Positions 10,518 to 62,455 of a DNA stretch of 64,000 nucleotides are shown piece after piece. Source of the stretch: an uncultured Bdellovibrionales bacterium (GTDB taxonomy: Bacteria > Patescibacteriota > Minisyncoccia > Moranbacterales > UBA1568); assembly GCA_964530135.1 (NCBI GenBank), contig CAZGXN010000003.1:42942-106941 (forward strand), read 5' to 3'. A program made the position numbers and the translations under genes. Positions within the stretch are counted from its first letter, which is position 1. Every line of letters begins with the position of its first letter. The notes under the pieces were generated by a model. It was not told where the DNA came from. It saw only the letters and a list, made by a program, of their open reading frames with translations, and ran no database searches.

Positions 10518-11846
10518 TTGGAGATTGAAATGAGAAAGCGTTTGATTTCTTTTGCACTGTTCCTGTCTTTCATTCAATCAGCCTTCGCTTTTGACTGGAA
10601 TTCGTTCACGGCTCCCCCAAGAAATATTCCGTTCACCGTAGGAACTGTGACTTACACATCATTTGTGCAGGTCAGGCATCCTTGGTATGCACTCAACTAT
10701 ATTGTCTATTACCCGGATGGAATAAGCGATGCCCTGAAGCCAGTTGCGGTCGACTATAACCAAGGATATCCCTACCAACACATCTAGTTCCTGCTCAACC
10801 CAACTTCTCAAAGCCAGGCTTATGACAGTGCAGACTACAATCCGAATGTGATTGCTTACTACTGCTCCGGAGTTTCGGCCTGTGAGAATAACAACTGGGG
10901 TGATTCGATAACGCCGACGCAAATCTGGTATCGACAATATACCTGGTTTGACTGGAATTACGCCGGGCCGACTGGTTATAACCTCCAGAATGATCTGGTG
11001 CGAGCAGTTGGCATCGATGTCAAGGTGAACTTTGGCTATGCCTGGGGTGGGCAATTCGGCCTGTCCACGCTTTCAGCGAATGATGTGGTGGTGACAGGCG
11101 CTGCTGCTCCGTCATACCTGAGCTTTCCGCTTGCGGGAGAGACTGCTTACACGGCAGGGGTTTCCTCCGTGATGGATCACTCGATGACGGCTCTATATGC
11201 GGGCGATACCAACAATACGGTCACTGCCTTCAATGGCGAAGCCGGAACTGTTGGTCCGTATGGAAGCAGTACTTGCTACCGAAAGACAGACAGCTCTGTT
11301 TTTCTTGTGGGGACCATAAATTACACGGGTGCTTTTAGTGGCGGAGGTGATACCTATCTCTGCTACAACGGTCACCCGGGTTACGATTACCCCAAGGTGC
11401 AAGGCACGGCAATCCTCGCTCCTGCCGGGGGAACGCTGTGCGTAGCCACTGCAACTCCTACTTCCAAGCCAACACCTTCGGCCGTGTGGAGAAATACCAG
11501 TCAGTGCCCGTTGTCTGTGGCGCCCGGTACCTCCACGGTTAACTGGAGTAGCCACCATGTCTTCTACATCCTCCATGGCTCAATGCTGATGAATGGATCC
11601 ACGGATGAGTACATGACCGTATTCCTCCACAGCAACAACCTGGAATCAACGGTCCTGGCCGGAATCTATGACGATGGCTACAAAGTTGTCACAAGGTTGC
11701 AGGAGATCGCCGCCGTCGGCGATATCGGTGCATCCGGTGCGTACCATATACATCTTGAGGTGTATAAGAAGGTGAGTGGCACCTGGAACCGTGTCGACCC
11801 ATATGGCGATGGTACGAGCAACTTGCTTTGGCCGAAGCCCTACTGA
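10518..11846 (+). pseudogene. Secreted M23-family metallopeptidase (LytM/lysostaphin-like) interrupted by a single in-frame TAG at 10785-10787. It is either a pseudogene or a sequencing error.
   Basis: ORF 10518..10787 has a signal peptide (MRKRLISFALFLSFIQSAFAFDW). ORF 10848..11846 is in the same frame and carries the M23 motifs NGHPGYDYP and HIHLEV. The 20 codons between the two are open. TAG serves as the terminator for pnp, thrS, comM and the yabE-like gene in this window. Confidence 0.6.
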
Positions 11847-11866
11847 AATCTCGTCGGAAACAATTT

Positions 11867-11905
11867 AAAACCCCTTCAAACTTGGAGGGGTCTTTTCTTT
11901 TTTAA
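11867..11905. terminator. Bidirectional rho-independent terminator between the M23 gene (plus) and the 11909..12601 gene (minus).
   Basis: AAAA-CCCCTTCAA-ACT-TTGGAGGGG-TCTTTTCTTTTTT. A 9-bp stem is flanked by an A-run and a T-run. Confidence 0.55.
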
Positions 11906-11908
11906 AAC

Positions 11909-12601
11909 TTATGGAAGAAACTTGAATGTTGAGAGAAACTTTGCTGCCAAGTCTTCGGTTACATCATCATGAATACTCACATGGTATTGTATATTTTCAT
12001 GTTGAAAAATCCCATCTCTTCTCTTGTTCATCCAAACTACTTTTTCACCACTAACAATGGATTCATTTAATTCTTCCCTATCAGGATTGGCAAATCCTAG
12101 ATATGGCTTTTCGGGAGAAAGTGTAATCCAGGTATTTTCAAGCTCTCCTTGTTCTTTAGGGATAGCCTCAATCCAAATACCACTCGACTTCCCACCACTT
12201 ATAGCCTCTATACTTGGAGCAAACATAACTTGATTGATACGCCCTCCAGCTAACAACTCCTTTTTAACATTGTTACAGTCATTCACGACTTGAAATCCTC
12301 GTATATCATCCCCTACAATCATTATCCATTCATCTGGATACTTGACCTGATATCCCCCAGAAATATTTTTACACATTTTTTTCCAATTCGCTGCCGGCTC
12401 AGTGACGACTAGTGGTACTATTTCCGGCTTCTGGATAGGGGATTGTGTCGTGGTCGGTTGTTGTTCTTGCATCACCCTATCTCGTTCAGTCTTTTGTCTC
12501 GCTTTCTCATCAAAATACCGTGCCATTAGAAGCATCCCTCCAAAGAGCATGACGAGACCTAGTCCGATTATCAACACCCCTCTTTGTTTACTGTTTTGCA
12601 T
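11909..12601 (-). CDS. Hypothetical protein with an N-terminal membrane anchor.
   Basis: 230 aa. A transmembrane segment (VLIIGLGLVMLFGGMLLMA) is followed by a Q/P/T-rich linker and a globular domain. No family was recognised. Confidence 0.55.
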   Translation of the reverse strand: MQNSKQRGVLIIGLGLVMLFGGMLLMARYFDEKARQKTERDRVMQEQQPTTTQSPIQKPEIVPLVVTEPAANWKKMCKNISGGYQVKYPDEWIMIVGDDIRGFQVVNDCNNVKKELLAGGRINQVMFAPSIEAISGGKSSGIWIEAIPKEQGELENTWITLSPEKPYLGFANPDREELNESIVSGEKVVWMNKRRDGIFQHENIQYHVSIHDDVTEDLAAKFLSTFKFLP

Positions 12602-13143: not shown

Positions 13144-13839
13144 ATGTTTGATCTCGATCCGCGGGCCGTCATGACGAGAAAGCTCTGGTTGCATTCGTGT
13201 TCTATCGCACTGGCAATCGCTGCTTTCTTTTTTCTTTATGTGTCGTATCTCGATGGGCCATTCACACTCGTCTCATTTGCGAAAGTGATGGCCGGAACGG
13301 CGAATTTTCTCTTTGCCATGTCGCTGTCGCTTTCGTCATTTGGATACTTCTTCAATTTTCTCGATAGCAAAATTGTGTATCGAAAATACTTTGGCCTCCT
13401 CGGCTACGGTGCTGCCCTGGCCTATACCCTCCTCCTCCCCGTGCTCCGACCTGAGCGTTACGGTTCGGGACTGGCCGAATATTTTTGGACGAGTGATGTC
13501 CTCCTCGGACTAGCGGCCATGGCGATCTTCACTGGCATGGCAATCATCTCAAATGATCGGGCGATGCTTGCCATCGGTCCGGTGCGTTGGCGCAATCTAC
13601 TCCGACTCGGCTATGTCGCCTTTTTTCTCCTCGTCATCCGCGCGGTCATGAACGAGAGCAATCCAATCGGTGCTGATCCGCGGCCGGAATATTGGAGTCT
13701 CTACCTCCAATCTTTCGACACGCTTCCACCGACCCGATTCCTCTTTTCGGTCGTGGCGAGTACGGTGATATTTCTTCGTCTGGCGGTCGAATTTGATAGG
13801 TGGCGGAAGCGAATGGTTCCAGCGGCTCCCAACGCATAA
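13144..13839 (+). CDS. Polytopic membrane protein (about 6 TM), hypothetical.
   Basis: 231 aa with hydrophobic helices evenly spaced across its length. No motif was recognised. Confidence 0.55.
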   Translation: MFDLDPRAVMTRKLWLHSCSIALAIAAFFFLYVSYLDGPFTLVSFAKVMAGTANFLFAMSLSLSSFGYFFNFLDSKIVYRKYFGLLGYGAALAYTLLLPVLRPERYGSGLAEYFWTSDVLLGLAAMAIFTGMAIISNDRAMLAIGPVRWRNLLRLGYVAFFLLVIRAVMNESNPIGADPRPEYWSLYLQSFDTLPPTRFLFSVVASTVIFLRLAVEFDRWRKRMVPAAPNA

Positions 13840-22758: not shown

Positions 22759-22813
22759 AGAGGAAAAAAAAGTATAACACCTTATAATCATAGGGATATT
22801 CCCTATTTCGTCA

Positions 22814-24205
22814 ATGCTGGCAGGATGGCGTGCATGCGCTATACTGTATGACTGTATGAAAATAATTCGTAAATATCTTGAGGGTGTAGAGGCGGTGTTG
22901 GTCTATGCCTATATTTGGCAGATACCGTTTTCGTGGCGCTTTATTCTTGATCCAAACCGCAGCCAGAGAAGTGCTGGATTTAACGAATACATGGATATTT
23001 CCCTATACATAGGAGAGATTTTGCTTATTATTGCACTTCTTATACACATATTACGATACAATATAGAAAAGAAGTCAATATATAAAAATAGGTTTAAAGT
23101 ACTTATTTCTAAATTGTTCCACGTGGAACATCGAAAAAAAATATTTTTTATTGGAATAATAACCCTTGTATTACTGAATGTATTTTTCTCAATAGATTGT
23201 CCACTGACACTTATGTCGATATTCCATTGGATAAACTTTGCTTTTTTTGTACTTCTTATTAAAGGACTATATGTTTCACGTGGAACAATAATTATAAGCT
23301 CAATATTTTTTATATTATCAATTAGTGTCTTTTTACAAACCTTTGTTTCTTTAAATCAGGTTATTTATGGATCATCAATAGGTTTTAAGATGCTAAATGA
23401 ATCAATTCTTTCATTGCATGAAATAAATATTGCTAAATCAAATATTTTTTCGCACCTTATTCTCAGAGGATATGGCACATTTCCTCATCCAAACATATTG
23501 GCCGCCTATGCAGCATTTACTATCATATATGGAATTTTATTCAAAAAAATTATGTTCCACGTGGAACATTTATATCCAGTAACATTATTTTTCTCTACCT
23601 TTCTTATAATTCTCACTCAGTCAAAACTAACATTTATATTTATTACAATCATGTATCTCTATTTAGTGTTAAAAAACTATAAAAGAAGAAAATTGTTCCA
23701 CGTGGAACATCTGTATTTACTAGTAATAACGGTACTATTTCTTATTTTCTTTAGTTTTCTCTTTAAACAGGATATTTACAATTCGTTTAAAACAAGAGTG
23801 GATCAGTATAGAATCCAGTTAAGTCATCTAAATGTAACACTTTTTGGATCTGGTTTAGGAACATATCGTTTATCATACGATACCCAATCTGCTGATTGGT
23901 GGAACATGGAACCAATTCACTTCACTCCAATAATTGCATTATCAGAGATTGGGATAGCTTTGCTACTTTTCGGATCTTATGTGCTCTATAAATATATTAA
24001 AATTGTTCCACGTGGAACATGGATTGGCATTTCTTTACCGATGTTTTTTCTGGTGTTTATATTGGTCTTTGACCATTATGCCTGGGATATATACCAGGGA
24101 AATTTTCTTTTACTCTCTATATCACTTCTCATAGCCTATAGAGTAATAATTGACATAGATTATAAAAAGTGTTATAGTATTGATAACTTTAACAATCGAG
24201 ACTAG
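22814..24205 (+). CDS. Polytopic membrane protein (10 or more TM; O-antigen ligase/Wzy-like by topology only) in an AT-rich island. Its ORF is maintained across five embedded palindromic repeats.
   Basis: A 463-aa ORF is open in roughly 30% GC DNA, which argues for a real gene. It is hydrophobic throughout. The repeat-encoded peptides are LFHVEH, MFHVEH, LFHVEH, YVSRGT and IVPRGT. Confidence 0.6.
   Translation: MLAGWRACAILYDCMKIIRKYLEGVEAVLVYAYIWQIPFSWRFILDPNRSQRSAGFNEYMDISLYIGEILLIIALLIHILRYNIEKKSIYKNRFKVLISKLFHVEHRKKIFFIGIITLVLLNVFFSIDCPLTLMSIFHWINFAFFVLLIKGLYVSRGTIIISSIFFILSISVFLQTFVSLNQVIYGSSIGFKMLNESILSLHEINIAKSNIFSHLILRGYGTFPHPNILAAYAAFTIIYGILFKKIMFHVEHLYPVTLFFSTFLIILTQSKLTFIFITIMYLYLVLKNYKRRKLFHVEHLYLLVITVLFLIFFSFLFKQDIYNSFKTRVDQYRIQLSHLNVTLFGSGLGTYRLSYDTQSADWWNMEPIHFTPIIALSEIGIALLLFGSYVLYKYIKIVPRGTWIGISLPMFFLVFILVFDHYAWDIYQGNFLLLSISLLIAYRVIIDIDYKKCYSIDNFNNRD
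23115..23130. repeat. Palindromic repeat copy 1: TGTTCCACGTGGAACA, a perfect 16-bp palindrome with a CACGTG core, frame A.
   Basis: Read at line 23101 as aaaTTGTTCCACGTGGAACATcg. Confidence 0.9.
23272..23287. repeat. Palindromic repeat copy 2 (one substitution): TGTTTCACGTGGAACA, frame B.
   Basis: Read as atgtttcacgtggaacaat. It matches the consensus at 15 of 16 positions. Confidence 0.8.
23553..23568. repeat. Palindromic repeat copy 3: TGTTCCACGTGGAACA. Extended by its flanks, ATGTTCCACGTGGAACAT is an 18-bp perfect palindrome. Frame A.
   Basis: Read as ttATGTTCCACGTGGAACATtt. Confidence 0.9.
23694..23709. repeat. Palindromic repeat copy 4: TGTTCCACGTGGAACA, frame A.
   Basis: Read as aaaattgttccacgtggaacatctg. 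Confidence 0.9.
24004..24019. repeat. Palindromic repeat copy 5: TGTTCCACGTGGAACA, frame B. A half-site GTGGAACA lies at 23899-23906.
   Basis: Read as aaaattgttccacgtggaacatgg. The half copy is ggtGGAACAtgg. Confidence 0.9.
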
Positions 24206-24829
24206 TAATATTACTGGTTGTTATTTAAAACATGAGCTTTCTCTGTTTTGAACCTTTTTTAGAAATAATTTGAGAAAATTTTGTTTTTAAGGTATTTTAG
24301 GAAATTTCTAGCTTAATAAGCTACGTTTGAAGCAAAGTAATTTGTGAAATAGCTTGTTTGAGGGATAATTTATTCTTAAATAAAGGTGGAAAATTGTGAA
24401 GTGTGTACATTTGACTTCGGACTATATTGTTATATCAGACCTTTTTTGGGTAACTGGAGGGCTCAAGAAAGCCGTGTATAATCGTTTTTTAATCCCTTGG
24501 GTCGGTTTGGTGTGTAGAAGTTGAGTGGTAGTTGGTAAGTCTGGTGAGTTATCAGAGGAGTTGCTAAGTGTTGTAGCAATATATCCACACAAAACCCAGA
24601 TAAAAAATTTATTTCAACCAAATAGACAAGTCAAATCTATTTTTTATTGCCATTTTTAGGAGGGACATAAAAAGGGGTAATGTTTTGAAGTGTACGCCTG
24701 AATTATGTATTAGATGGCCGATTCTGATTATATGAACAGATATCGGATAAAAGGCTTTGGTGGACTCATATTGTTTTAAGGATGAGGCGACTGTTGCAAA
24801 AAAAATATTGTGATATACTTTCTTTATAT

Positions 24830-25825
24830 ATGGGAGTAATACACACAAAAAATAATTTGCGTTGGAGCATTTTTGTTTTTTCATTTCTCTGTCTTTTCAG
24901 TTCGGCGTTGTATGTTGCCGCTGATGAAACATCGACGACAGATACGATCGTTTTTGATGATGCTGATTCGGATAACCTCTCAAGTGAGGAAGAAAAAATT
25001 TATGGCACGGATCCGAGTGTGGCAGATACGGACGGTGATGGATATAGTGATGGGGTTGAAATTGAGGGAGGATTTGATCCATTGAAACCAGCGCCTGGGG
25101 ATCGAATGATACCGGACGAGGTGAAAACTGAAACGAGTGGAGAGGCTGTTGACGCAGCGTCGGTGAATCTGACAGAGGTGGCAGCGACCGGACTCGCAGG
25201 GTTTGTTTCGGAAAAAATGGATACAGATAAGGGATCGGAAGTAACATCCGATGACCTCAATTCCGTTATGGAAAATATCATGGCGGTGAGTGGAGAGGAA
25301 GTAGTGTTGCCGGAAATTGATACTGCTGCAATTAAGGTAAAGAAAATCTCAGCGAAGCTTTCGGAAGAAGAACGAAAAGAGCAGAATCGCCAAGATGTGA
25401 TTGAATATCTCACGCTGACGAGTTATATACTCATATCAAATGCGCCGGTGCAAATCCGAGATACACAAGCACTCAAAAGTTTTACAATGGATGCAGGGAG
25501 TAAGATGGTAGCGGGATTGCTTTCAGGAAATTATGATTACCTTGATACGATTGAAGAACGAGGCAAGAAGGCGCTCGATGAAGTGAGTAATGTAGAGGTG
25601 CCTGAGAGCATGATTGATACTCATGTGAAGACTATTAAAATGCTGACTTTTGCTTCGAATCTAAAACAATCAATTAAGGTAACCACTCGTCCAGATGATC
25701 CTCTTGGGCAGATGTATATGTTTTCAAAAGCGCAGGGCTTTCTCATGTCGCTCGGTGGCTTTATGCAAGAAACTCAAGGGAAGTTATCTGATATTGGTAT
25801 TGAGAACATCCCACTGGATATTTAA
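24830..25825 (+). CDS. Secreted protein with a thrombospondin type-3-like calcium-binding Asp repeat. The track ORF starts at 24782; the ATG at 24830 gives a signal peptide.
   Basis: MGVIHTKNNLRWSIFVFSFLCLFSSALYVAADE is followed by DTDGDGYSDGVEIEGGFDPL. The rest is acidic and low in complexity. Confidence 0.6.
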   Translation: MGVIHTKNNLRWSIFVFSFLCLFSSALYVAADETSTTDTIVFDDADSDNLSSEEEKIYGTDPSVADTDGDGYSDGVEIEGGFDPLKPAPGDRMIPDEVKTETSGEAVDAASVNLTEVAATGLAGFVSEKMDTDKGSEVTSDDLNSVMENIMAVSGEEVVLPEIDTAAIKVKKISAKLSEEERKEQNRQDVIEYLTLTSYILISNAPVQIRDTQALKSFTMDAGSKMVAGLLSGNYDYLDTIEERGKKALDEVSNVEVPESMIDTHVKTIKMLTFASNLKQSIKVTTRPDDPLGQMYMFSKAQGFLMSLGGFMQETQGKLSDIGIENIPLDI

Positions 25826-25829
25826 AGTT

Positions 25830-26906
25830 ATGCGTGAGCTAGGTCAAAAAAATCATTTGCGGAAATTCGTACTGATGGTTTTGATTGGTGCTATATTGAC
25901 GACGAGCTCGGCTCCATTACCAGTGCAGGCGGGTGTCTGGGGTGAGAGCATCGCGTCTACATTTCTCAAGGAAGCACTGGAATACATCGCAAGAAATATT
26001 CAGGCAGTGCTGCTCGGTATTGCAAAAAAGGTGGCGGTTACATTGGCAAGAGATGCAGCCAATCGACTGACAGCTGGTGGATCGTCCAAAAAGGCAGCCT
26101 TTATAACAGACTATAAACAGTATATTTATGATGCAGCTCTCGATGAAGGGCTCATCTATATGAATGATCTGCTCACCTCGGCGACGGGTGGCAAGAATTC
26201 AGCCCTCAATTATGTTGTCGCGGGTGGCCCGAGCCTCCAATCGTTGGGGATGAACTATATGAATTATCTGAATGCTGAGGTAAATGCAGCCTTTGTCAAT
26301 GATCGCTGTCGTTATACTCTCGATCAGTATACCCGCAATGTTACGGTTTCACTTGGAGAAGGGGACTGGCGCATACTGAACGCGGTCGTATCCAATGATT
26401 GTAATAACCCGCTTGGGATGAGTATCAATATCAAAAATAAAACACAGCAGAAAATCAATGCGCAGCAAGAAATCGCCAAGACAAAAGCCATCGCAAATAA
26501 GGGGTTTAAAGGAGTTGAAATCAATGGAAAAACAGTTTCTCCCGGGTCCATCATCGCTGATGTTACGGGGGCAGCGCAAAAACTTCCTTTTGAACTGATT
26601 GTTGGGTCAAAGGACTTCGCTGAGCTTCTGGCTGCTGCTGCTGGTACTTTTGCTAATACGGCGCTCAATAATCTCTATCAGCGTGGATTTGAACAGGTTT
26701 CACAAAATATCAGCCGCGAATTGGGGAAAGTGGACTCGCAAATCCGGGGTGCTCGGCAGAACTTGCAACAACAGCTTGGTCCCGGGTCGCAATTTCTCCG
26801 TAATGCCAATCAGCAACTGGGTGGTTGGAACGGTGCTTCGACCGCGGGGAAATATACAGGTGTACAGCAATCAAATATAAACTTCAACTCAGCCCCTGCT
26901 CCCTAG
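25830..26906 (+). CDS. Secreted hypothetical protein, starting 4 nt after the previous stop (operon). The track ORF starts at 25695; the ATG at 25830 gives a signal peptide.
   Basis: MRELGQKNHLRKFVLMVLIGAILTTSSAPLPVQAGVWG. It is rich in A/N/Q/G with no recognisable domain. Confidence 0.55.
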   Translation: MRELGQKNHLRKFVLMVLIGAILTTSSAPLPVQAGVWGESIASTFLKEALEYIARNIQAVLLGIAKKVAVTLARDAANRLTAGGSSKKAAFITDYKQYIYDAALDEGLIYMNDLLTSATGGKNSALNYVVAGGPSLQSLGMNYMNYLNAEVNAAFVNDRCRYTLDQYTRNVTVSLGEGDWRILNAVVSNDCNNPLGMSINIKNKTQQKINAQQEIAKTKAIANKGFKGVEINGKTVSPGSIIADVTGAAQKLPFELIVGSKDFAELLAAAAGTFANTALNNLYQRGFEQVSQNISRELGKVDSQIRGARQNLQQQLGPGSQFLRNANQQLGGWNGASTAGKYTGVQQSNINFNSAPAP

Positions 26907-27155: not shown

Positions 27156-28040
27156 CTAGCTTGGTGTGATGCTAGAGGAGCTCTCACTTGTCTCCAGGGC
27201 CACCTTTTTTGTCAGTGGTTTTTTTGGGGGAGTTGCGACGGCCCGAAAGAAGAAGAGTCGGAGTGTTTGATCAAAAATGAAATAACCACCAAGTGGGATG
27301 AAGGTAAAGAAATAAGCCATTCGGTTGAGGTCGGAAAGAGAGAGCCCTAGGATTTTTTTAGCGGCTTCAAAGAGAAGTCCGAAAAAGAGTGCCAGGAGCG
27401 CGGCATAAAAGAAAAACAGGACAATAGTGAATGTTTGGCGTTGGAACAGACGAAATCCTAGATCAACCGCCGTTGTGAAGCGTACCTTTCCTAAAAGTGC
27501 ATAGAAGAGCGAAAGTTCTTTTATGAAATGGAGATATATTGCAAGAGTGAGCAATAACAACAGTCCAAGTTCAATGAGTACTGGGAGTACAGATGGGTTG
27601 AAGTGCCAAGCCAGAAGACTGGGGAGACAGACGAGGGCGGCAGTCCCGATGAGAAAGAGCCAGTAGGTGAGTTCAAAAGTGATCGCAATATAGATCGCTC
27701 GGATAGCTTTGAGCCAGGTAATGGTTTGGCTGAGGTCATGTTTGATTGTGGGTTTGCGATTGAGGAGTATGAGGAGCGGACCACGAATGATTGATTGGCC
27801 AAATGTGGCCACAAAAACTAGTCCAACAGCTATGAGCCAGGACTGGTTTGTGAAAAGCGAGATCCAGAGTGCGGCATCGGCGGTTTCGGTTGGGAGGGTA
27901 GACTGGAGTTTTTGGCTCGCCAGTGACCCGATGCCGATACAGAGGCTGGCGGGAAATGCGAACCACCACAAAGACCGGCGTTCATATGCGAGACGGAGAG
28001 CGTCTCGGGTGATCATGGCGAGAGAGGCTATCTCAGGCAT
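27156..28040 (-). CDS. Polytopic membrane protein (hypothetical).
   Basis: 294 aa with at least 7 hydrophobic helices and a Ser/Thr/Pro-rich C-terminal tail. Confidence 0.55.
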   Translation of the reverse strand: MPEIASLAMITRDALRLAYERRSLWWFAFPASLCIGIGSLASQKLQSTLPTETADAALWISLFTNQSWLIAVGLVFVATFGQSIIRGPLLILLNRKPTIKHDLSQTITWLKAIRAIYIAITFELTYWLFLIGTAALVCLPSLLAWHFNPSVLPVLIELGLLLLLTLAIYLHFIKELSLFYALLGKVRFTTAVDLGFRLFQRQTFTIVLFFFYAALLALFFGLLFEAAKKILGLSLSDLNRMAYFFTFIPLGGYFIFDQTLRLFFFRAVATPPKKPLTKKVALETSESSSSITPS

Positions 28041-51693: not shown

Positions 51694-52653
51694 CTATTTC
51701 TTCTTCCGCTTGCCGTGAAAGGACTGATGAACTTCTTTCAGGCGTTCATTGGTAACATGGGTATAGATCTGTGTCGTGGTGATAGAGGCATGACCGAGCA
51801 TCGCCTGGACGGATCGGATATCTGCACCATTCATGAGGAGGTCAGTGGCAAAACTGTGCCGGAGCGTATGGGGATGGACATCTTTTACAATGCCGGCTTT
51901 TTTCGCATAGTGTTTCACGAGTCGAGCGATCGTTCGGGGAGTCAGTCGGAGGGTTTCGCGCGCAGCATTCCTTTTGTTGACCAAGCCTCGCTTGGGGTGG
52001 GCAACGAATAGAGCGGGGTCGATATCGGATCGGTGCTCGAGGTAGTGTGCGATGGCCGTTTTAGCGCTTTTGGAGAGAAACACGATGCGCAGTTTTGAAC
52101 CCTTGCCCCGGACGCTAAATTCATCCTTGGCGAGATTCACCTGATCGCGATTGAGGCCTGTGAGCTCTGAGACGCGGAGACCAGCTGAAAAGAGAAGCTC
52201 GAGCAGTGCTCGGTCGCGCCGACTTCGGAGAGTGTCTCCGGTCGGAGCAGCGAGGAGTCGTTCAATTTCATCAGACTCAAGGAATTCAACCTGGCGCTCA
52301 GGTATTCGGCCAATTTCAATCTTTTCAGCGGGCAGGGTTTCGATATCGTGTTTTGCGAGATACTTGAGAAAAGTCCGAAGAACGATAATATGATGGGCCT
52401 GCGTGCTCTTTTTGAGTGTGCTACCAGGCTTGGTCTCACGCCGATTGAGGGCGAGTCGGTACTGGCGGATCTGCTCAGCGGTGATATCGCTGGGGTGGTG
52501 GATATCGCCCCATGTAAAGAAGGCCTGTAGTGTTCGTTGATAGCTATCAATAGTACGATGGGAGCGATTCATCTCGATTTCGAGGTGGTCGAAAAACGCC
52601 TGGGCGAGTCGTTCAATTTCAGTTTTTTGTTTGGAAGGTGAGTGGTCAGACAT
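51694..52653 (-). CDS. xerD: Tyrosine recombinase of the XerC/XerD family.
   Basis: 319 aa. An N-terminal SAM-like domain. Catalytic residues in GLRVSEL, HTLRHSFAT and LGHASITTTQIYTHV. Confidence 0.85.
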   Translation of the reverse strand: MSDHSPSKQKTEIERLAQAFFDHLEIEMNRSHRTIDSYQRTLQAFFTWGDIHHPSDITAEQIRQYRLALNRRETKPGSTLKKSTQAHHIIVLRTFLKYLAKHDIETLPAEKIEIGRIPERQVEFLESDEIERLLAAPTGDTLRSRRDRALLELLFSAGLRVSELTGLNRDQVNLAKDEFSVRGKGSKLRIVFLSKSAKTAIAHYLEHRSDIDPALFVAHPKRGLVNKRNAARETLRLTPRTIARLVKHYAKKAGIVKDVHPHTLRHSFATDLLMNGADIRSVQAMLGHASITTTQIYTHVTNERLKEVHQSFHGKRKKK

Positions 52654-54117: not shown

Positions 54118-54322
54118 CTGATTTGTGGGAAAGGGTGGAGCGAAGACGGTTACAAGAATGAGTGGGGAGGATGGTGAGGCAAGAAAAGCAGCGGGTTTCA
54201 ATGCCTCTCCTTGAGTTTCAGCGCTTGATCCCCGCCACTCTCTTCTTTGTGTGTCCCAATCCTGTGGGCTTGTGGTATACTATTTTTGTATCCGATGTCG
54301 TCGTCTGTATCGCTGCGTACTT

Positions 54323-56338
54323 ATGCGTTGGGTGAAACAAAATACAAAAAAAATTCTCATTGGTTTTTTTGCGTGTGCACTCATTGTTCAGAGTGGTGCT
54401 GTTGCGGTCCAGCCAGTCTTTGCTACTGCCCCGACAGTTGGCAGTCAGATCGAAACCAGTGCTCAAGCGGCTGGCAATCCAAACTCCCCTCCGACCGGCA
54501 ATGAGATAGAGGGAGGTTGTTCCTGGTATAATTGGCTTGCCTGTGGTAAAGACCTTATCGTCTGGTTTTTGAAAGAGATCCGCGATCTTATCTATCGCGG
54601 TTTTGCTGTTCCGGCCGCGGCGGGATTTGCCTGGGCGCTGAATCCGGCCAATATCTCTGGACCGACTGGAGTGTTGAATCTCTCGGCAGTCTATACTCTC
54701 TGGCAGTTTATCCGAGATTTCTTCAATCTCTTTTTCATTCTCATCCTCCTTTTTTCGGCTTTTGCGACAGTTTTCCAGGTGGATAGTTTCAATATCCGCA
54801 ATATCTTCAAAAATGTCCTCTTGGTCGCACTGCTCATCAATTTCAGCTTTCCAATTACTCGATTTCTCATTGATGCGGCCAATGTGCCGATGTACTACTT
54901 CATCAATGATGTGATCGGTGATGGCACGGGGAATGGTGGTATGATCGCCATGAATAACATGCTCCGACACTCGGGTGCCGGCGCGGGCGCCATGGTTACT
55001 ACCGGAGACAACAGCAGTGTCGTCCAGATTCTCTTGTCGATTATTTTCGTTTTTTTATTTGGTATCTCGCTCCTGGTGTTGGCGGTGATGATGATTATCC
55101 GTCTCCTCGCGCTCACATTATTGCTGATCTTTTCACCGATTGGCTTTGCCTCGGCGCTGCTCCCGGGACTCAATGAATATGGCCAACGATGGTGGAGCAA
55201 CTTTTGGAACTATGCACTGTTTGGACCGGCGGCCGCGCTCATGCTCGTAGTGTCATTGAAGTTTCTCGAGGCGAGCGGATCACTCTTTACCTCGATGCAG
55301 CAGGTATCGACCAATGTCAGTGTCGACCCGAGCGGAGCTACTTCGGTGGCTCAGGTCATTTTCTTCACGATCCCGATTATCCTCATCTGGTTTACTATCG
55401 GCCTGGCGAGCAGGTTCAGTGTGGCTGGTGCCGCGACCGTCGTCGGCCTCGGCTATGGCGCCGCACATTGGACGCGGAAGAAGCTACAGAAAGGTGTGGG
55501 ATTTGTCGGCAAGAAGGTCGTCGTTAATCCTGTTACCAGGGGAGTGGGGAGCGGTATCGCCCAACGTTTCAATGACAACAAGATAGTGAAGTATGTAAAA
55601 TCTCCAGGCAAGGTTGAGGCGCGGATCAGAGGGGCTGTTGGTACTGGTACCGTCAGTGGAGAATTGGGTAAACTCCATGAGCAGCAGGTAAGGAGAGAGC
55701 TGGATGAATTGAAGAAGAACAAGGCGAGTTATTCTGAGGCTCGGGCGGGAATGACAAGTGGGAATCAGGCATCACGTCAGGCAAACGCAATGTATCTTGC
55801 TCAGAATGATGATATCCGAAACGCAAGTGATTTTAGAGATGGACTCGCTGCTATGGCGGGCAATGCAGAATTTACCAGTGAATTTGTTAAAAAATCTCAA
55901 GGAGCGATTGATAATGTTACGGACTTGGCGACAGCTCTCAATGCCCTGGGCACTGACAGCAAGACTGCCGCAGCAGTTATCGATAAGATAAATCCAGGCG
56001 CCCTCCCTGCGAATTCAGCTGACTATGCGTCAATCCTTGCAGCCCCAGCCTTTACTTCCCCAGCTTCACAGAAGCAACTTCAGAGTAAGATGAAGAAAGA
56101 GGGTCGGATAAGTTCAGTGATAGATCATGAGGTTAGGACGACAGGCGCGAGTATGGCTTCGGTGGTTGATCGCCATTTGGATAGCATGACAGTCGAAGAG
56201 ATAGCAAAACAAGATAGCTTACTTCGGAGCAATCCTGATGCGCACGGCTATGTACTCGGTCTAAGGACGAGTGACCCAGCAAAGTATCAAGAGATTAAAA
56301 ATAAGATGAAATCGGGTACAAGTGCATTGTTTCCGTGA
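54323..56338 (+). CDS. VirB6/TrbL-like polytopic inner-membrane T4SS channel protein with a hydrophilic C-terminal extension. The track ORF starts at 54251 with GTG; the ATG at 54323 gives a signal or TM start.
   Basis: MRWVKQNTKKILIGFFACALIV followed by at least 7 TM helices in a VirB6-like arrangement, then about 250 aa hydrophilic. It lies in an operon with the VirB4 gene. Confidence 0.55.
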   Translation: MRWVKQNTKKILIGFFACALIVQSGAVAVQPVFATAPTVGSQIETSAQAAGNPNSPPTGNEIEGGCSWYNWLACGKDLIVWFLKEIRDLIYRGFAVPAAAGFAWALNPANISGPTGVLNLSAVYTLWQFIRDFFNLFFILILLFSAFATVFQVDSFNIRNIFKNVLLVALLINFSFPITRFLIDAANVPMYYFINDVIGDGTGNGGMIAMNNMLRHSGAGAGAMVTTGDNSSVVQILLSIIFVFLFGISLLVLAVMMIIRLLALTLLLIFSPIGFASALLPGLNEYGQRWWSNFWNYALFGPAAALMLVVSLKFLEASGSLFTSMQQVSTNVSVDPSGATSVAQVIFFTIPIILIWFTIGLASRFSVAGAATVVGLGYGAAHWTRKKLQKGVGFVGKKVVVNPVTRGVGSGIAQRFNDNKIVKYVKSPGKVEARIRGAVGTGTVSGELGKLHEQQVRRELDELKKNKASYSEARAGMTSGNQASRQANAMYLAQNDDIRNASDFRDGLAAMAGNAEFTSEFVKKSQGAIDNVTDLATALNALGTDSKTAAAVIDKINPGALPANSADYASILAAPAFTSPASQKQLQSKMKKEGRISSVIDHEVRTTGASMASVVDRHLDSMTVEEIAKQDSLLRSNPDAHGYVLGLRTSDPAKYQEIKNKMKSGTSALFP

Positions 56339-56358
56339 TCCTTTAACATTGAATTGGT

Positions 56359-57510
56359 GTGAGTGGAGATACTGTAAAAAACATCCTTTTCTTTCCAATG
56401 CTTGTCTCTGAAAGTGGGACAGGTGAGGCTATGACGCCAGAAGTTTCGGAAGAATTATGGATGAAACTTCGAAATCTATCTCCTAATAAGCGAGACATTC
56501 TTGTCTGTCGAGAATTGCCCCAGAAGCTCCTGATTCTCAAGGAGAAGTTAAATTTGGATGAAAAAGCTATAGGCCGTATCAGTTTGGTGATTCGGAAGAT
56601 TTTTTTTAACGAACTTGATCTTGCTGGTGCTGAGGCTAAGATTGCTTCGATGCTTGGGGCGGGTGGAGCAGAGAATCCGAACCATGCTAAGGCTATTGTT
56701 GAGTTTATTAAAAAAGAAATACTAACCATTAAGCCAGTAAAAGAAGTCGTGCCAGATGAATCTTTGTCAAGTGAGCCAGTTATCAAAACCGCGCGGCTGC
56801 CGCTCCTCAAGGCGATGAGTGAGTACCCGCATTTGTCAGAACAACTCTTGACCAGAGAAAAGATCAAATTGAAATCATCGACGGAACCGGTGCGACCATC
56901 GCTTGGGAATTGGCTGAAGAGCTATCGTGAAGAGCTCGGTATCGGGTTCCATGAGCCAGTCAAGCGGGGAAATTTTCTCTTTCAATCCCAGAATGGCAAG
57001 CGTCTGTCCAATGAGGAGCGAGCGAGATTCAATCTCATCTTGAAGTCGGTCGAAGAGGAATTTCCGCTTGACATCGATACGGAACGCCAGGCAATAGTCT
57101 TTCCATCGTCTGGCGATGTGGCGATGGAGCTGACTCAGATCCGAACCAATCCATCCCAGCCTACTCCAAACAGGATGATTCGAGCACGGGGTCTGTCGAC
57201 CAGTCTACCGGCCTCTGAAACTACACCAGAAACATCTTCACCAACCGCCTTTCAGTCCTTCAAACCACTGTTTGCGAAATCAGTATCGCCGGAGAAGAAT
57301 GTTTCAGGTGAGACATTACATTTCTCTACAGGGCATGTGTTGCCAGCGGAACGCGAGGCGGGCGCTCCAACATCCGATGGGAGCGAGGCACTCCGTCAGA
57401 TGCAGCATCCGACGCAGGGTATTCGGCGTGAACCCAATCCAGCGCTTTCTCGGAGTCCGTACTCGATCCGTCCGCTCCGTCCTCGGAGTGGGGACAATGA
57501 AAACGCCTAG
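56359..57510 (+). CDS. Hypothetical soluble protein inside the T4SS-like operon, with a Pro/Ser/Thr-rich C-terminus.
   Basis: 383 aa. It starts 20 nt after the VirB6-like stop. No motif was recognised. Confidence 0.5.
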   Translation: MSGDTVKNILFFPMLVSESGTGEAMTPEVSEELWMKLRNLSPNKRDILVCRELPQKLLILKEKLNLDEKAIGRISLVIRKIFFNELDLAGAEAKIASMLGAGGAENPNHAKAIVEFIKKEILTIKPVKEVVPDESLSSEPVIKTARLPLLKAMSEYPHLSEQLLTREKIKLKSSTEPVRPSLGNWLKSYREELGIGFHEPVKRGNFLFQSQNGKRLSNEERARFNLILKSVEEEFPLDIDTERQAIVFPSSGDVAMELTQIRTNPSQPTPNRMIRARGLSTSLPASETTPETSSPTAFQSFKPLFAKSVSPEKNVSGETLHFSTGHVLPAEREAGAPTSDGSEALRQMQHPTQGIRREPNPALSRSPYSIRPLRPRSGDNENA

Positions 57511-57603
57511 CATTTTCTTCAACATGATATACTGCACAGTGTAGGTTGGATTTTTGTTTGTCGGAAAGATGAAACGAGGAAATAGTTTGAAACAAAAACC
57601 GTT

Positions 57604-57999
57604 ATGATGTTCAGCGTCCCCCAGTTTATTGATGTTGAAGACAAAATTGCTGGCCCACTCACTTGGCGTCAGTTGTTGTGGATGATCGGGATGGGGATTC
57701 TTCTCCTCGTCATATACAATACTATCGGTACAGCTGGTTTTTTGATTGTGGCGGTCCCGATTGTCTTACTGTTTTGTGCCCTAGCCTTTTATCGGCCACA
57801 GGGTCAACCGCTCATTGTGTTTCTCTTCCATGGATTTACCTATTTCTTCCGGCCGAAAATTGCTGTCTGGGAGCGCCCAATAGCCCGCCGCCAGGCAGCT
57901 CCTGAGGTTGAAGCTGCTCCCGTGAAAGCAGCGGCGAAAGCCAAACAGCTTTCACCAGAAGCTCTCCGCGATTTGGCTCGGCTCATGGACACCCACTAG
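57604..57999 (+). CDS. PrgI/VirB3-like small two-TM T4SS protein.
   Basis: 131 aa. MMFSVPQFIDVEDKIAGPLTWRQLLWM is followed by two TM helices and a basic tail. It sits immediately upstream of VirB4, as VirB3/PrgI does. Confidence 0.5.
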   Translation: MMFSVPQFIDVEDKIAGPLTWRQLLWMIGMGILLLVIYNTIGTAGFLIVAVPIVLLFCALAFYRPQGQPLIVFLFHGFTYFFRPKIAVWERPIARRQAAPEVEAAPVKAAAKAKQLSPEALRDLARLMDTH

Positions 58000-58008
58000 T
58001 TTTCATGT

Positions 58009-58683
58009 ATGGAATTTCTCTCTAAGAAAAAATCTGGCAGTTTGAGTACACAGCGATATGTCGATGTCGAAGAGCTGCGTGATGGCGTTCTCGTTCTCAA
58101 AACCGGAGCGCTGCGGGCGGTACTCCTTGTCTCATCGATTAATTTTGATCTGAAATCGAGCGAAGAACAGGATGCGATTATTTCTCAGTATCAGAATTTC
58201 CTCAATTCACTGGATTTTCCCATTCAAATTGTCGTGCAGTCTCGCCGGTTCAATATCGATCCGTATATCGAACTCCTCCGTGGGAAAGAGGCACAGCAGG
58301 CCAATGAGCTCCTTCGATTCCAGATGAAAGAGTACCAAAGCTTTATCAGGAACCTGACGGATGTTTCGAATATTATGTCGAAGTATTTTTATGTTGTTGT
58401 ACCATTTTCACCAGTTGAAAATGTCGAGACGGGATTTTTCGGAAAAATGGGAGACATTTTCAATCAGCGGAAAACCGTCGGCCTCAAAAATGAATTGTTT
58501 GATACCTACCGAACACAGATCATGCAGCGCGTCGAACATATTGTCGCGGGTCTTTCTCCGATGGGAATCCGCGCAACAGCCCTGGGCACCGAAGAATTGA
58601 TCGAGCTCCTCTACAATAGTTATAATCCATCACTCTTTGCATCAACGATCGTGAAAAATGTCGAGGCGATTGAGCTCCAGTAA
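58009..58683 (+). CDS. VirB4-family N-terminal domain encoded as a separate ORF (the N-terminal piece of a split VirB4).
   Basis: 224 aa. VDVEELRDGVLVLKTGALRAVLLVSSINFDLKSSEEQDAIISQYQNFLNSL resembles the N-terminus of Gram-positive VirB4 proteins (TraE/PrgJ). It ends with TAA at 58681-58683. Confidence 0.55.
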   Translation: MEFLSKKKSGSLSTQRYVDVEELRDGVLVLKTGALRAVLLVSSINFDLKSSEEQDAIISQYQNFLNSLDFPIQIVVQSRRFNIDPYIELLRGKEAQQANELLRFQMKEYQSFIRNLTDVSNIMSKYFYVVVPFSPVENVETGFFGKMGDIFNQRKTVGLKNELFDTYRTQIMQRVEHIVAGLSPMGIRATALGTEELIELLYNSYNPSLFASTIVKNVEAIELQ

Positions 58684-58687
58684 ACTT

Positions 58688-60919
58688 ATGGGACGAGAAC
58701 TGATTATTTTTGACCGGCCAATCAAGAAAGTATCCGTGGTTGATCCGATGAATATCGCGACCCCTGGTCTTGGTGAGCTTTCTGTACCGCCTCGCTCACG
58801 TGGCCAAGCGGGAGCCGCCCTGCCATCCGCGCGTGCCACAAATGCCGATGGAGTCCGGCCACCCCAGCCAGATGATACTGTGCTGCCGACCGACATCCAC
58901 TCAGAGAAAGTGGCATCAGCTCCAGCGAGTCCAGTTTCGCGTCGAGCGCCAGAGCCACGCGAGACAGTCTCAGCTCCTGATCGAGGAGGAAGGCTTGCCC
59001 CACCAGAAAAGAATCGCGCCGTCTGGGCAGAGGAGGTTGTGGCCCAGGCTTTTCCAGTTGATAATCCATCGACTATCAAGTCGGAGAAAAAGAGTTTTCT
59101 TGGGAGTCTTTTTGGAAAAAAATCCCAGACCCCAGTTTTGGATACAAATCGGGAAACAGAACAGCTCTATCAGAAGGGTCTGGCAACGATCCGTGATCTC
59201 ATTGCTCCGCCAGCGATTCGAGTGAGTCCAGCGACCATGCAGATCGGCGATGTCGTCGCTCGGACACTGTTCATCATCGCGTACCCGCGGTTTCTTTCGA
59301 CCAATTGGTTTTCTCCGATTATCAATATCGACTTTCCGATGGATACGGCGCTGTTCATTCATCCGATAGATACAGCTGAAATCCTGAAACAACTCCGTAA
59401 ATCCGCGACCCAGGTGCAATCACAGATGAATATCGAAATTGAGGAGGGGAAGATCCGCGACCCAGTACTTGAGGCGGCGCTTCAAAATATTGAAGAATTG
59501 CGTGATCGTCTCCAGCAAGGGACAGAAAAGTTCTTTCGCTTTGGTCTCTATATGACGCTCTATGGGGCAGATGAGAAAGATCTCTCCCAAAAAGTGCAGT
59601 CGATTGAAGCGATTCTTGAGGCGCAGCTCGTGTATACCAAACCCGCTGTCTTGCGAATGGATGTTGGGTTTGCGTCGACTCGACCGCTGGCCAATGATGC
59701 ACTGGATGTGGCCAATAACCTCAACACTGAGCCGCTTTCGACTACTTTCCCCTTTGTCTCTTCAGATCTCTCCTCCAATGAGGGTATCCTGTATGGCATC
59801 AACCGGCATAACAATTCGCTTATTCTGTTTGATCGGTTCAAGATGGAAAATGCCAATATGGTGGTCTTTGCAAAGTCTGGTGCGGGTAAGAGCTATACGG
59901 TAAAACTTGAAGTTTTGCGGGCGCTCATGCTCGATACAAGCGTTATTATTATTGATCCAGAAAATGAATATAAGCATCTCTGTGAGACGGTCGGTGGAGC
60001 CTTTCTGAAAATTTCTCTCAACTCGGATATTCATCTCAATCCGTTTGATATGCCGAAAGTCGGTGCGGAAGAAGAGTCAGATGGCGTTTTCCGAAACACT
60101 ATTGCCAATCTCATCGGACTTCTCCACCTCATGCTCGGGACTTTATCAGCCGAAGAAGATTCGATCTTGGACCAGGCTATCCGTGAGGCGTATGCGATTC
60201 GTGATATTCACGAAGATTCAAATTTCGGCGCATTGCTTCCGAATTCCTTTCCAACAATGTCTGATCTGCATGCAGTCCTGAAGAATATGGAGGGTGCGGA
60301 TTCGATTGCTGCTCGACTGCGACGCTATACAGAGGGTATTTTCTCGGGTTTTCTGAATGAGCAGACGAATATCGATACGGATAACCAGCTTGTTGTCTTC
60401 AATATTCGAGATCTGGAAGAGGAACTCCGTCCGATTGCGATGTATATCATCCTTCAGTACATCTGGAATGATATTCGCTCAAAGCTTCGCCAACGCATCA
60501 TCGTCGTCGATGAGGCCTGGATCATGATGCAAAATGAGGATGCAGCCTCGTTCCTATTTGGCATCGCCAAGCGCTGCCGCAAGTACTACACTGGTCTTAC
60601 GACGATCACTCAGGACATCAGCGACTTTATGTCTTCGCGCTACGGCAAGCCGATTATCACCAACTCTTCGATGCAGCTGCTCCTCCGTCAATCACCCGCA
60701 TCGATTGACTATATCACCGAGACTTTTTACTTGACGGATCATGAGAAGTTTCTTCTGCTCGAGTCGAATGTGGGGGAAGGAATTTTCTTTGCCGGGACAA
60801 AACACGCCGCTATAAAAGTCATTGCTTCATATAGTGAAGATCAGATTATCACTTCGGACCCGCGTCAGCTTCTCGAAATTGAAGAAGCGAAGCGCGACTT
60901 CGATTCCAACAACCCTTAA
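58688..60919 (+). CDS. VirB4/TrbE/CagE-family T4SS ATPase (central and C-terminal ATPase domains) with a roughly 130-aa Pro/Ala/Ser/Arg-rich low-complexity N-terminal segment. The track ORF starts at 58658; the ATG at 58688 lies 4 nt after the upstream stop.
   Basis: Walker A is FAKSGAGKSYTVK. Walker B is RIIVVDEAWIMM. The middle region QIGDVVARTLFIIAYPRFLSTNWFSPIIN is VirB4-like. The reading frame differs from that of 58009..58683. Confidence 0.8.
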   Translation: MGRELIIFDRPIKKVSVVDPMNIATPGLGELSVPPRSRGQAGAALPSARATNADGVRPPQPDDTVLPTDIHSEKVASAPASPVSRRAPEPRETVSAPDRGGRLAPPEKNRAVWAEEVVAQAFPVDNPSTIKSEKKSFLGSLFGKKSQTPVLDTNRETEQLYQKGLATIRDLIAPPAIRVSPATMQIGDVVARTLFIIAYPRFLSTNWFSPIINIDFPMDTALFIHPIDTAEILKQLRKSATQVQSQMNIEIEEGKIRDPVLEAALQNIEELRDRLQQGTEKFFRFGLYMTLYGADEKDLSQKVQSIEAILEAQLVYTKPAVLRMDVGFASTRPLANDALDVANNLNTEPLSTTFPFVSSDLSSNEGILYGINRHNNSLILFDRFKMENANMVVFAKSGAGKSYTVKLEVLRALMLDTSVIIIDPENEYKHLCETVGGAFLKISLNSDIHLNPFDMPKVGAEEESDGVFRNTIANLIGLLHLMLGTLSAEEDSILDQAIREAYAIRDIHEDSNFGALLPNSFPTMSDLHAVLKNMEGADSIAARLRRYTEGIFSGFLNEQTNIDTDNQLVVFNIRDLEEELRPIAMYIILQYIWNDIRSKLRQRIIVVDEAWIMMQNEDAASFLFGIAKRCRKYYTGLTTITQDISDFMSSRYGKPIITNSSMQLLLRQSPASIDYITETFYLTDHEKFLLLESNVGEGIFFAGTKHAAIKVIASYSEDQIITSDPRQLLEIEEAKRDFDSNNP

Positions 60920-60924
60920 ACGCT

Positions 60925-61695
60925 ATGGCCGAGGATATTGATTCGGCGTTTGAACAGCTCCACCAGAGCAAATGGATGCAACTTCGGAACGCTACTCGTC
61001 TGGCTTTTGAACACCGGAAGAGAGTGGCGGCTGGTGATTTGTCGGTCTTCATTCTGCCATTAGCTCTGGCCATGGCTAAAGACGGACTTTTGGACTTCAT
61101 TCCGTTTATCGGGTTATTTTTCGGGCTTTTTATCACTACATACCTCTTTATTTTCATGTGGGGTCGGGGTCGGTGGATACTGCGCATCCTCTTCTTCTTT
61201 GTGGCTACTGTCGGTAATCTTCCTTTCATCAAACTCTTGCCTTTTGATACGATCAGCGTTCTCTTCGCTTATTTCTTGGCACGCAAAGATGTGGCAAAGG
61301 CCAAAGAGAAATTGGAGAAAGTTAATCAGGTGATACCGCGGCTGGCGGATGATCTCCGCGGTGTGGCGCGCCAGCGTGCGCGGGCCCAAGAGGCGGCCCA
61401 AGAGGCAGAGGCATCCGCTGCCCAAAGCGCTGCCCAGATGGATACAGCATCTCGCTCGCCTGAACGGTTAGTGGGAGCTGCTCCAGTACTCGCTGTCCCT
61501 CGGGGACAGGTAATACCTTCTCGTTCGGACCAGGCGACTGCGCTTCGTCATAGTCAAAGCGCGGTTAACGAAGCTACCTTGAGAATACAAGCTGCGGGAC
61601 GTCAATTGGCTCAGAGTTCTCTGGCGTATACAGCGGGTATGCGCCAGTCTGGAGCACCAAGAGGGGTTTCGGAAAAGCGGCAACGAGCGGTTTAA
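60925..61695 (+). CDS. Membrane protein in the T4SS-like operon (3 to 4 TM) with an Ala/Gln-rich coiled-coil C-terminus.
   Basis: 256 aa. It starts 6 nt after the VirB4 stop. TM helices are LSVFILPLALAMA, IPFIGLFFGLFITTYLFIFMW and ILFFFVATVGNLPFI. Confidence 0.5.
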   Translation: MAEDIDSAFEQLHQSKWMQLRNATRLAFEHRKRVAAGDLSVFILPLALAMAKDGLLDFIPFIGLFFGLFITTYLFIFMWGRGRWILRILFFFVATVGNLPFIKLLPFDTISVLFAYFLARKDVAKAKEKLEKVNQVIPRLADDLRGVARQRARAQEAAQEAEASAAQSAAQMDTASRSPERLVGAAPVLAVPRGQVIPSRSDQATALRHSQSAVNEATLRIQAAGRQLAQSSLAYTAGMRQSGAPRGVSEKRQRAV

Positions 61696-61790
61696 TCAGT
61701 AGAACCGTCACAGAAGGTGATCGGTTGGCTCAGAGTGATAGTCCTTTGTCCTATCAGTGTATAATAAGGAAGTAAAGCAGCTTTGTTTCT

Positions 61791-62453
61791 ATGGAACACT
61801 GGATGCGTCTGGTCATGCGGCACAAAGAGTTCATCGGCACTACGACGGTTGTAGTGGCGGCTATCTTTTTACTTGGGTACTTTCCAGAAAGTGAGAATGT
61901 GAGCCCGACACTGGAAAACTTTATAGTTGCGACTGGTGTGTTCTTGGTCATTCCGTTTGCCTATTGTAGAATAATGTTAGGGCGTTCTTTTTCAGCAATT
62001 GGGTTTCAGCGGGGGAATATCTGGGCTGGTGTAGGTGGAGGTCTCTTGGCGCTCATCGTCGCGCTAGCTGCTCTCTTCGTGCTCTGGAATTTTACCCCCT
62101 TACTCGCCGACTATCGTCTGCCCGTTATCGTCGAGGAGCAGTTTCTTTTCTTCGTTCTGTATGAAGTGTTTCTGAGCGGGTCTATCGTTTTCATGTTCGA
62201 GGTGTTCTTTCGAGGGTTTGTTATGCTGCTGTGGCTCCGGAAATGGGGCATCTGGTCTGTCGTCGCTCAGGCCGTTCTTTTCGGAACATTGATGTATGCT
62301 GGAAATGACCTGAGTGCGACGATGATTCCCTATCTTATCTTTGCCCCGTTCGCTGGTCTGATCGCTTATCAGTCCCGATCGATCTGGTACAGTTATGGGG
62401 CAGCGTGGTTCTATCTTTTTTTGACGGATGCCATCGTCCTTATCTTCCGCTGA
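61791..62453 (+). CDS. Polytopic membrane protein, possibly CPBP/Abi-family-like (weak).
   Basis: 220 aa with 6 TM helices. There is an E...R motif (FEVFFRG), but the canonical His motifs are not evident. Confidence 0.4.
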   Translation: MEHWMRLVMRHKEFIGTTTVVVAAIFLLGYFPESENVSPTLENFIVATGVFLVIPFAYCRIMLGRSFSAIGFQRGNIWAGVGGGLLALIVALAALFVLWNFTPLLADYRLPVIVEEQFLFFVLYEVFLSGSIVFMFEVFFRGFVMLLWLRKWGIWSVVAQAVLFGTLMYAGNDLSATMIPYLIFAPFAGLIAYQSRSIWYSYGAAWFYLFLTDAIVLIFR

Positions 62454-62455
62454 TT

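Follow-up and report, generated by a model that had tools for sequence, protein, structure and literature searches.

The DNA analysed here, referred to throughout as the window, is a 64,000-nucleotide stretch from an uncultured bacterium, in which a 16-bp palindrome occurs five times inside one intact open reading frame (ORF; 22814..24205, + strand) for a polytopic membrane protein of the WaaL/Wzy_C fold. We consider it very likely that these palindromes are chromosomal parS sites, and that together they form the centromere of the host bacterium. This reading is based on identity to experimentally validated parS, proximity to the replication origin, purifying selection at the level of DNA, exclusivity to the one locus, and the association of the same 16-mer with parAB genes elsewhere.

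Scanning the window for TGTTCCACGTGGAACA at up to three mismatches returned exactly five matches per 64 kb, where shuffled-sequence controls (n=100) gave an expectation of 0.23 and reached five in none of the 100 shuffles. Four copies are exact, at 23115..23130 (site 1), 23553..23568 (site 3), 23694..23709 (site 4) and 24004..24019 (site 5), and one, at 23272..23287 (site 2), is the variant TGTTTCACGTGGAACA, starting TGTTTCAC; none is assigned a strand. Spacings between copies are 157, 281, 141 and 310 bp, all within 0.9 kb and all confined to the 463-aa ORF. Sites 1, 3 and 4 share one reading frame and encode (L/M)FHVEH (LFHVEH in a first short basic loop, MFHVEH and LFHVEH, respectively), and sites 2 and 5 share another, encoding V(S/P)RGT (VSRGT, in a turn between two transmembrane helices, and VPRGT). 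A preliminary description of the window, made from its letters, had given these positions, the single mismatch, the spacings, the two frames with their peptides, the confinement to the ORF and the absence of the motif elsewhere in the window, and all of this is borne out by our search. Two further details hold up less well. The shared unit, which had been extended through the flanks to about 21 bp, is only weakly supported at that length: similarity among the copies fades past 16-18 bp, beyond which the flanks are merely A/T-rich (65-87% identity), with the A-rich 5' flank explained by the Lys/Arg codons of the basic loops. The isolated half-site, GTGGAAC at 23899..23905 (no strand assigned), is indeed present, and we do not count it as parS; it encodes a conserved WWN of the host protein in which W363 is invariant, half-sites outside the cluster occur at chance frequency, and those conserved codons probably produce it by coincidence.

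Judged by its sequence, the 16-mer is parS, the centromere site bound by ParB, in its consensus form (TGTTNCACGTGNAACA). The experimentally validated parS2 and parS3 of Pseudomonas aeruginosa are both TGTTCCACGTGGAACA (PMC4368675 Table 1), as is the parS of P. putida, with the general consensus being TGTTNCACGTGAAACA and the 22 sites of Myxococcus xanthus reading TGTTCCACGTGGAACG (PMC7022226 Table 1). Compared with the parS pattern tGTTNCACGTGNAACa, four of the sites in the window are identical to P. aeruginosa parS2/3, and site 2 fits the consensus with a T at the N position; a full-text literature lookup of the exact 16-mer string likewise leads to papers on ParABS. Of the four explanations that the preliminary description had put forward, protein-binding sites with a CACGTG core thus came closest, the identity with parS having been missed. 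We also scanned metagenome contigs for two exact 16-mers lying 15-45 bp apart, which yielded at least 120 loci. Among the matches listed, 56 of 120 had homologues of Soj and/or Spo0J in the short locus recovered, these parAB-linked loci coming from diverse and mostly GC-rich bacteria; four loci (L157, L180, L181 and L204; GC 0.29-0.38) carried arrays of 7-11 sites within Wzy-like ORFs, and the other dense arrays lay for the most part between genes, next to parA.

The relatives of the host gene provide further evidence. A first homologue search preselected candidates by shared 5-mers and was biased towards the translated palindrome peptides; a second sample therefore used peptide patterns independent of the motif (EYMD.S.Y and RGYGTFPHP), keeping 80 loci of 501 GTDB relatives. 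Homologues carry the translated palindrome at matching alignment positions, and over the 80 loci we counted 88 sites in the gene, 12 within 2 kb downstream of it and none in the other ~1.2 Mb of flanking sequence. The syntenic close orthologues (L003-L014) each have at least five sites within the gene (up to two mismatches), and their flanks, ~20 kb each, hold no site at up to one mismatch. All five positions are occupied by a site in 13 of 13 orthologues, whose proteins are 33-49% identical, and across these 13 the codons within sites are frozen: the ratio of TTC to TTT is 39:2 inside sites as against 120:354 elsewhere in these AT-rich genes, that of CAC to CAT is 40:0 as against 34:84, and CGT accounts for 25/25 Arg codons inside sites and 26/156 elsewhere. 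Such variation as the sites do show falls only at palindrome positions 1, 5, 12 and 16, the very ones at which parS is degenerate.

Might the conserved element nonetheless be a protein motif (FHVEH or VPRGT), or alternatively a target of restriction-modification or a signal for DNA uptake? The peptides do recur in homologues. Saying this, site 2 switches frame among the orthologues, being read as CSTWN in some and VSRGT in others, and in more distant relatives all three frames are in use (325 FHV, 252 VxRxT and 103 CSTWN); three unrelated peptides from three frames, with their synonymous sites frozen, exclude a protein motif, and the claim of the preliminary description that conservation lies at the level of DNA is upheld. 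On these codon and frame patterns, what is conserved is the DNA and not the protein, by purifying selection. CACGTG is a known restriction site, and the preliminary description had advised testing it as a restriction/modification target, but the hexamer occurs four times outside the sites (~10.6 expected in total), and so is neither avoided to zero nor enriched. An uptake signal, also suggested at the outset, would be spread genome-wide in hundreds to thousands of copies, whereas the 64 kb hold only five, crowded into 0.9 kb and with none elsewhere. We regard this whole group of explanations as having a vanishingly small chance of being correct. A wider search at up to two mismatches, covering ~83 kb (the window with loci L084 and L089), added no further site, bar two chance-level two-mismatch matches in the window. 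Rarity combined with selection on the DNA, as seen across this ~83 kb of contig and the ~1.2 Mb of relatives' flanks, is what chromosomal parS sites display.

A different origin for the copies, also among the earlier suggestions, would be the in-frame insertion of miniature mobile palindromes resembling the Rickettsia palindromic elements (RPEs). Copy number does climb in some relatives, to 12-18: single proteins carry up to 18 translated copies, with ~11 extra residues per copy, and arrays in many CPR (candidate phyla radiation) lineages range from 3 to ~18 sites per gene. In L086, 15 sites crowd into 1.4 kb of the syntenic orthologue, and L087 has 12, among them a cassette of three, spaced by 41 and 50 bp, that is repeated three times, with conserved flanks, in one Wzy_C-like gene. 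The L087 cassettes lie at 10680-11485 and are read in frames 1, 0 and 2, the ORF staying open throughout; the sites within a cassette fall in three frames because the spacings are not multiples of three. Repeated cassettes with conserved flanks point to local duplication within the gene, which is what the expansions in general look like. Against mobile elements, the unit is 16-18 bp, where RPE-like elements would be tens to more than 100 bp long and dispersed over unrelated genes, and no copy lies in any other gene in the 64 kb or in the ~1.2 Mb of flanks. Moreover, the sites stand at orthologous positions in proteins only 33-49% identical, and are therefore old and not newly inserted. Aligning the orthologues, as the preliminary description had advised, places the sites at the same five positions, where they replace loops; family members lacking parS have unrelated short loops at the matching positions, and since these loops are already present, the sites have been written into permissive turns and not added as long inserts. 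In our view, insertion of RPE-like elements is highly improbable.

The preliminary description had further raised recombination between the palindromes, by inversion or deletion, as a route by which a surface-polysaccharide gene might undergo phase or antigenic variation. Identical repeats within a surface-glycan gene, three of them (sites 1, 3 and 4) in the same frame, are what such a system might employ. The five-site architecture and its spacings are, however, stable in the 13 orthologues (for example, 151/281/138/310 bp in L003 against 157/281/141/310 bp in the window), the same contig sequence was recovered unrearranged in independent assemblies, and no recombinase was found adjacent to the gene, the nearest integrase being at 51694-52653. 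We therefore hold phase variation to be extremely improbable.

As would be expected of chromosomal parS, the cluster is close to the origin. Directly beyond the left end of the window, rpmH-rnpA-yidC-jag diverges from dnaA-dnaN-dciA; dnaA starts at approximately window coordinate -8100, 31.2 kb from site 1, the spacer between dnaA and dnaN holds a DnaA-box cluster (four boxes at up to one mismatch), and GC skew flips sign around dnaA, with the skew of the + strand of the window positive throughout and without a switch. The origin region itself corresponds to 9644-13126 of L089, contig positions 109939-113421, or window coordinates of about -7750 to -11240. Two related genomes with both genes on one contig have the host gene on that same side of dnaA, at a distance of 25.8 kb (L086/L090) and 35.9 kb (L010/L091). 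In L027 (Paceibacterota) eight sites occupy ~460 bp (11864-12335) directly downstream of a Wzy-like gene, in a region without any ORF of 100 aa or more, with dnaA ~8 kb further on; and in the CPR-like metagenome contig L174 (gyrA 71% identical to that of L088) five parS sites at 13583-13837 sit directly beside dnaA, no Wzy-like host gene being detected in the recovered sequence, which ends there. In this related lineage the array is thus placed differently.

The host protein itself has the polytopic WaaL membrane fold and a Wzy_C domain, and hence the features of the surface-polysaccharide ligase/polymerase family, though its resemblance to characterised members is weak in sequence and a PDB sequence search gave no match. 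Its true start codon is probably ATG 22856, to judge from alignment with the orthologues. In a confident AlphaFold2 model the parS-encoded peptides coincide exactly with the five short inter-helix turns (residues 87-92, 139-144, 233-238, 280-285 and 383-388, in 449-aa numbering). Lys/Arg runs precede four of the five, and by the positive-inside rule the modelled turns are presumably cytoplasmic loops. Residues of the long loops (RGYGTFPHPN; H, D/H) are invariant and the catalytic-loop motifs conserved; the gene, to judge from this conservation, is functional.

The gene, together with its downstream spacer, also forms an AT-rich island (22800..24800, no strand assigned; GC ~0.31 against 0.48 for the window). 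Host-gene GC is 0.31 and its GC3 (GC at third codon positions) 0.28, compared with GC3 of ~0.52 for ftsH and gyrA, and with an overall GC of 0.51-0.52 for a nearby pair of ordinary paralogues of the Wzy_C family on the contig (L089 2352-4899), a locus in which no parS was found. The island is conserved in the syntenic orthologues (L003-L014); orthologues have a GC of 0.28-0.39 and their flanks 0.47-0.51. Recent transfer is no explanation for this AT-richness, given the synteny and vertical inheritance of the gene.

Several observations weigh against the parS interpretation. We searched for ParA and ParB with Pfam on ~57 window ORFs, with phmmer using B. subtilis Spo0J/Soj queries, and with profile hidden Markov models built from 31 ParB and 43 ParA sequences of the metagenome loci; neither protein was found in the window or in contig positions 38185-121723 (~83 kb), nor, by single-sequence and profile searches, in 1.55 Mb of related CPR loci. 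These probes are valid, since they match readily in other metagenome loci, namely the 56 of 120 pair-scan loci among the matches listed. A literature search, incomplete in its coverage, retrieved no paper that documents ParABS in CPR bacteria. Finally, a simple 'tolerant host' model, in which the gene does no more than put up with the sites, does not account for its conserved AT-richness. As for candidates within the window, a 294-aa ORF at 27156-28040 was considered as ParB on account of its ParB-like length and its being a conserved neighbour; it encodes a hydrophobic membrane protein with no Pfam match, and was set aside.

Some of these points also speak for a regulatory alternative, in which a protein other than ParB (ParB/Noc-like, or with some other helix-turn-helix), or a ParB acting as a regulator, silences or times the envelope-polysaccharide gene, segregation not being the primary role. 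Neither ParA nor ParB was found in any of the CPR loci examined, the array is tied to one gene that is itself unusually AT-rich, and one lineage has its array immediately beyond the end of the gene, implying that it is the locus that matters and not the ORF. What decides us against it is that all 16 of 16 positions fit the parS consensus, with the variable positions being exactly those of parS; that the sites are origin-proximal; that 56 of the 120 independent loci among the matches listed have parAB next to the same 16-mer; and that the L174 array adjoins dnaA, in a recovered sequence where no such gene was detected. We judge a regulator of this kind to be improbable, and continue to favour chromosomal parS sites.

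If the palindromes are parS, then by analogy with characterised ParABS systems we can propose a model for how they might work. Each 16-bp site would be bound by ParB dimers, which would load as sliding clamps dependent on cytidine triphosphate (CTP) and spread into a few kilobases of neighbouring DNA. ParA would move the partition complex so formed, and/or the complex would serve to load SMC (structural maintenance of chromosomes) proteins, such that the origin region is segregated. Five sites in 0.9 kb would provide a strong nucleation point ~31 kb from oriC. We suggest that the sites have been written into coding sequence at five short basic inter-helix turns, where nearly any peptide might be tolerated, so that the gene stays functional while its DNA carries the centromere. 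A ParB that binds the sites is, by the same analogy, something we infer in the host bacterium, no ParB gene having been found in the 83 kb of contig examined.

A bolder proposal, which we offer tentatively and think on balance unlikely, is that one particular WaaL/Wzy_C-like gene near oriC serves as a dedicated, conserved 'centromere gene' across a large part of the CPR, with array, AT-richness and membrane-protein coding linked functionally. Were this so, transertion (co-translational membrane insertion) might tether the origin and centromere to the membrane, in cells that perhaps have no other anchors; or ParB spreading might couple expression of the envelope-glycan enzyme to the cycle of replication and segregation. 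A more radical sub-case would see lineages without canonical ParA/ParB employ some other reader of parS.

How does this array compare with systems already described? Both parS and intragenic parS sites are known; the site internal to spo0J in B. subtilis, for instance, encodes VPRET. The palindrome is identical to that of P. aeruginosa and P. putida (0-1 mismatch to the general consensus), and clustered copies in an origin-proximal domain are a feature shared with the chromosomal ParABS systems of B. subtilis, P. aeruginosa, C. crescentus, M. xanthus and C. glutamicum. Unlike in those systems, the entire array is here contained in one ORF, at codon positions that are fixed across distant relatives; three frames are used, with up to ~18 copies per gene; the array is not next to parAB; and the host gene is a conserved AT-rich island. 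Myxococcus xanthus, Streptomyces and Corynebacterium have 10-22 parS sites near oriC (PMC7022226 Table 1). In having many parS concentrated near oriC, the present array resembles theirs. Those clusters take in many genes and extend across tens to hundreds of kilobases, as opposed to the 5-15 sites found here within 0.9-1.4 kb of a single gene. With RPEs there is a likeness of another sort, these also being palindromic DNA that is translated in proteins, sits in permissive loops and is selected or propagated as DNA. RPEs are ~100-150 bp long, are dispersed over many unrelated genes and have, to our knowledge, no known binding protein, unlike the present unit, which is 16 bp, restricted to one locus and a match to a known protein-binding site.

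A literature search found no report of parS in CPR bacteria, nor of a whole parS array conserved in one membrane-protein gene and read in multiple frames, though its coverage was incomplete and a prior description is possible; nothing relevant was retrieved on the translated peptides or on parS in O-antigen ligase genes. What appears to be undescribed is thus the placement of the whole array in one syntenic AT-rich gene in many CPR lineages. The CPR/Patescibacteria are ultra-small, mostly uncultured, and make up a large share of bacterial diversity, and we know of no experimental work on their chromosome segregation; the sites provide a concrete candidate centromere for them, and the host gene could serve as a marker with which to locate the origin region in fragmentary metagenome-assembled genomes. 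The array is also an unusually clean natural case of dual coding, with a protein-binding DNA array long kept within an ORF, in three frames and at permissive turns. For annotation, the recurring FHVEH, VPRGT and CSTWN peptides of these proteins should not be taken as protein features.

Not every member of the family carries sites. Many distant members are without them, including those of Microgenomates and Daviesbacteria that lie 3-5 kb from dnaA; a diverged palindrome was looked for in the dnaA-adjacent Microgenomates and Daviesbacteria homologues and is not present. A Wzy-like homologue 3-5 kb from a DnaA-like ORF (recognised by its Walker-A motif only) is seen in Microgenomates, Daviesbacteria and Dojkabacteria-type genomes (L045, L049, L051, L060, L061, L063, L066, L068-L073, L080 and L081), and in these loci it has neither parS nor any other repeated palindrome. 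The idea that non-coding arrays in very low-GC contigs are in fact Wzy-like genes in genetic code 25 was ruled out by test.

On the minus strand, at 23552-23569, 23694-23709 and 24004-24019, the palindrome and the run of T that follows it, which comes from the Lys-codon flank, together score as a hairpin resembling a terminator. There are six terminator-like calls in the parS region, against 1.1 expected, three of them being these minus-strand sites; the hairpins could act as a stop to antisense transcription, though their stems are weak, with 3 GC pairs. An Rfam search returned only tRNAs.

The window sequence lies within a 145 kb metagenome contig (ENA ERZ27247837 k141_2188592), its nearest named relatives being Candidatus Moraniibacteriota, and its gene content is CPR/Patescibacteria-like (type IV secretion system (T4SS) pilin, ribonucleotide reductase, gyrA, ftsH, tilS, many tRNAs and a conjugation-like T4SS block). 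That block, at 54251-63236, comprises PrgI/TcpE-like and TraG/VirB4 P-loop ATPase genes with several family-less ORFs, and the T4SS-pilin-like gene is separate from it, at 708-2096. The gene at 51694-52653 encodes a tyrosine recombinase (Phage_integrase with a SAM-like N-terminal domain, XerC/D-like), 28 kb from the parS cluster. ATP-grasp/RimK-like ligases, MATCAP, YdjC and a 7TM_transglut protein form a conserved origin-adjacent cluster in three related genomes (L089 15793-21428; L090 15823-19910; L091 15718-21425). Within 24782-26906, the mechanically called ORFs at 24782-25825 and 25695-26906 overlap; in the gene calls of the source contig these are 24830-25825, a TSP3 repeat protein, and 25830-26906, both of which are conserved as neighbours of the parS gene in relatives.

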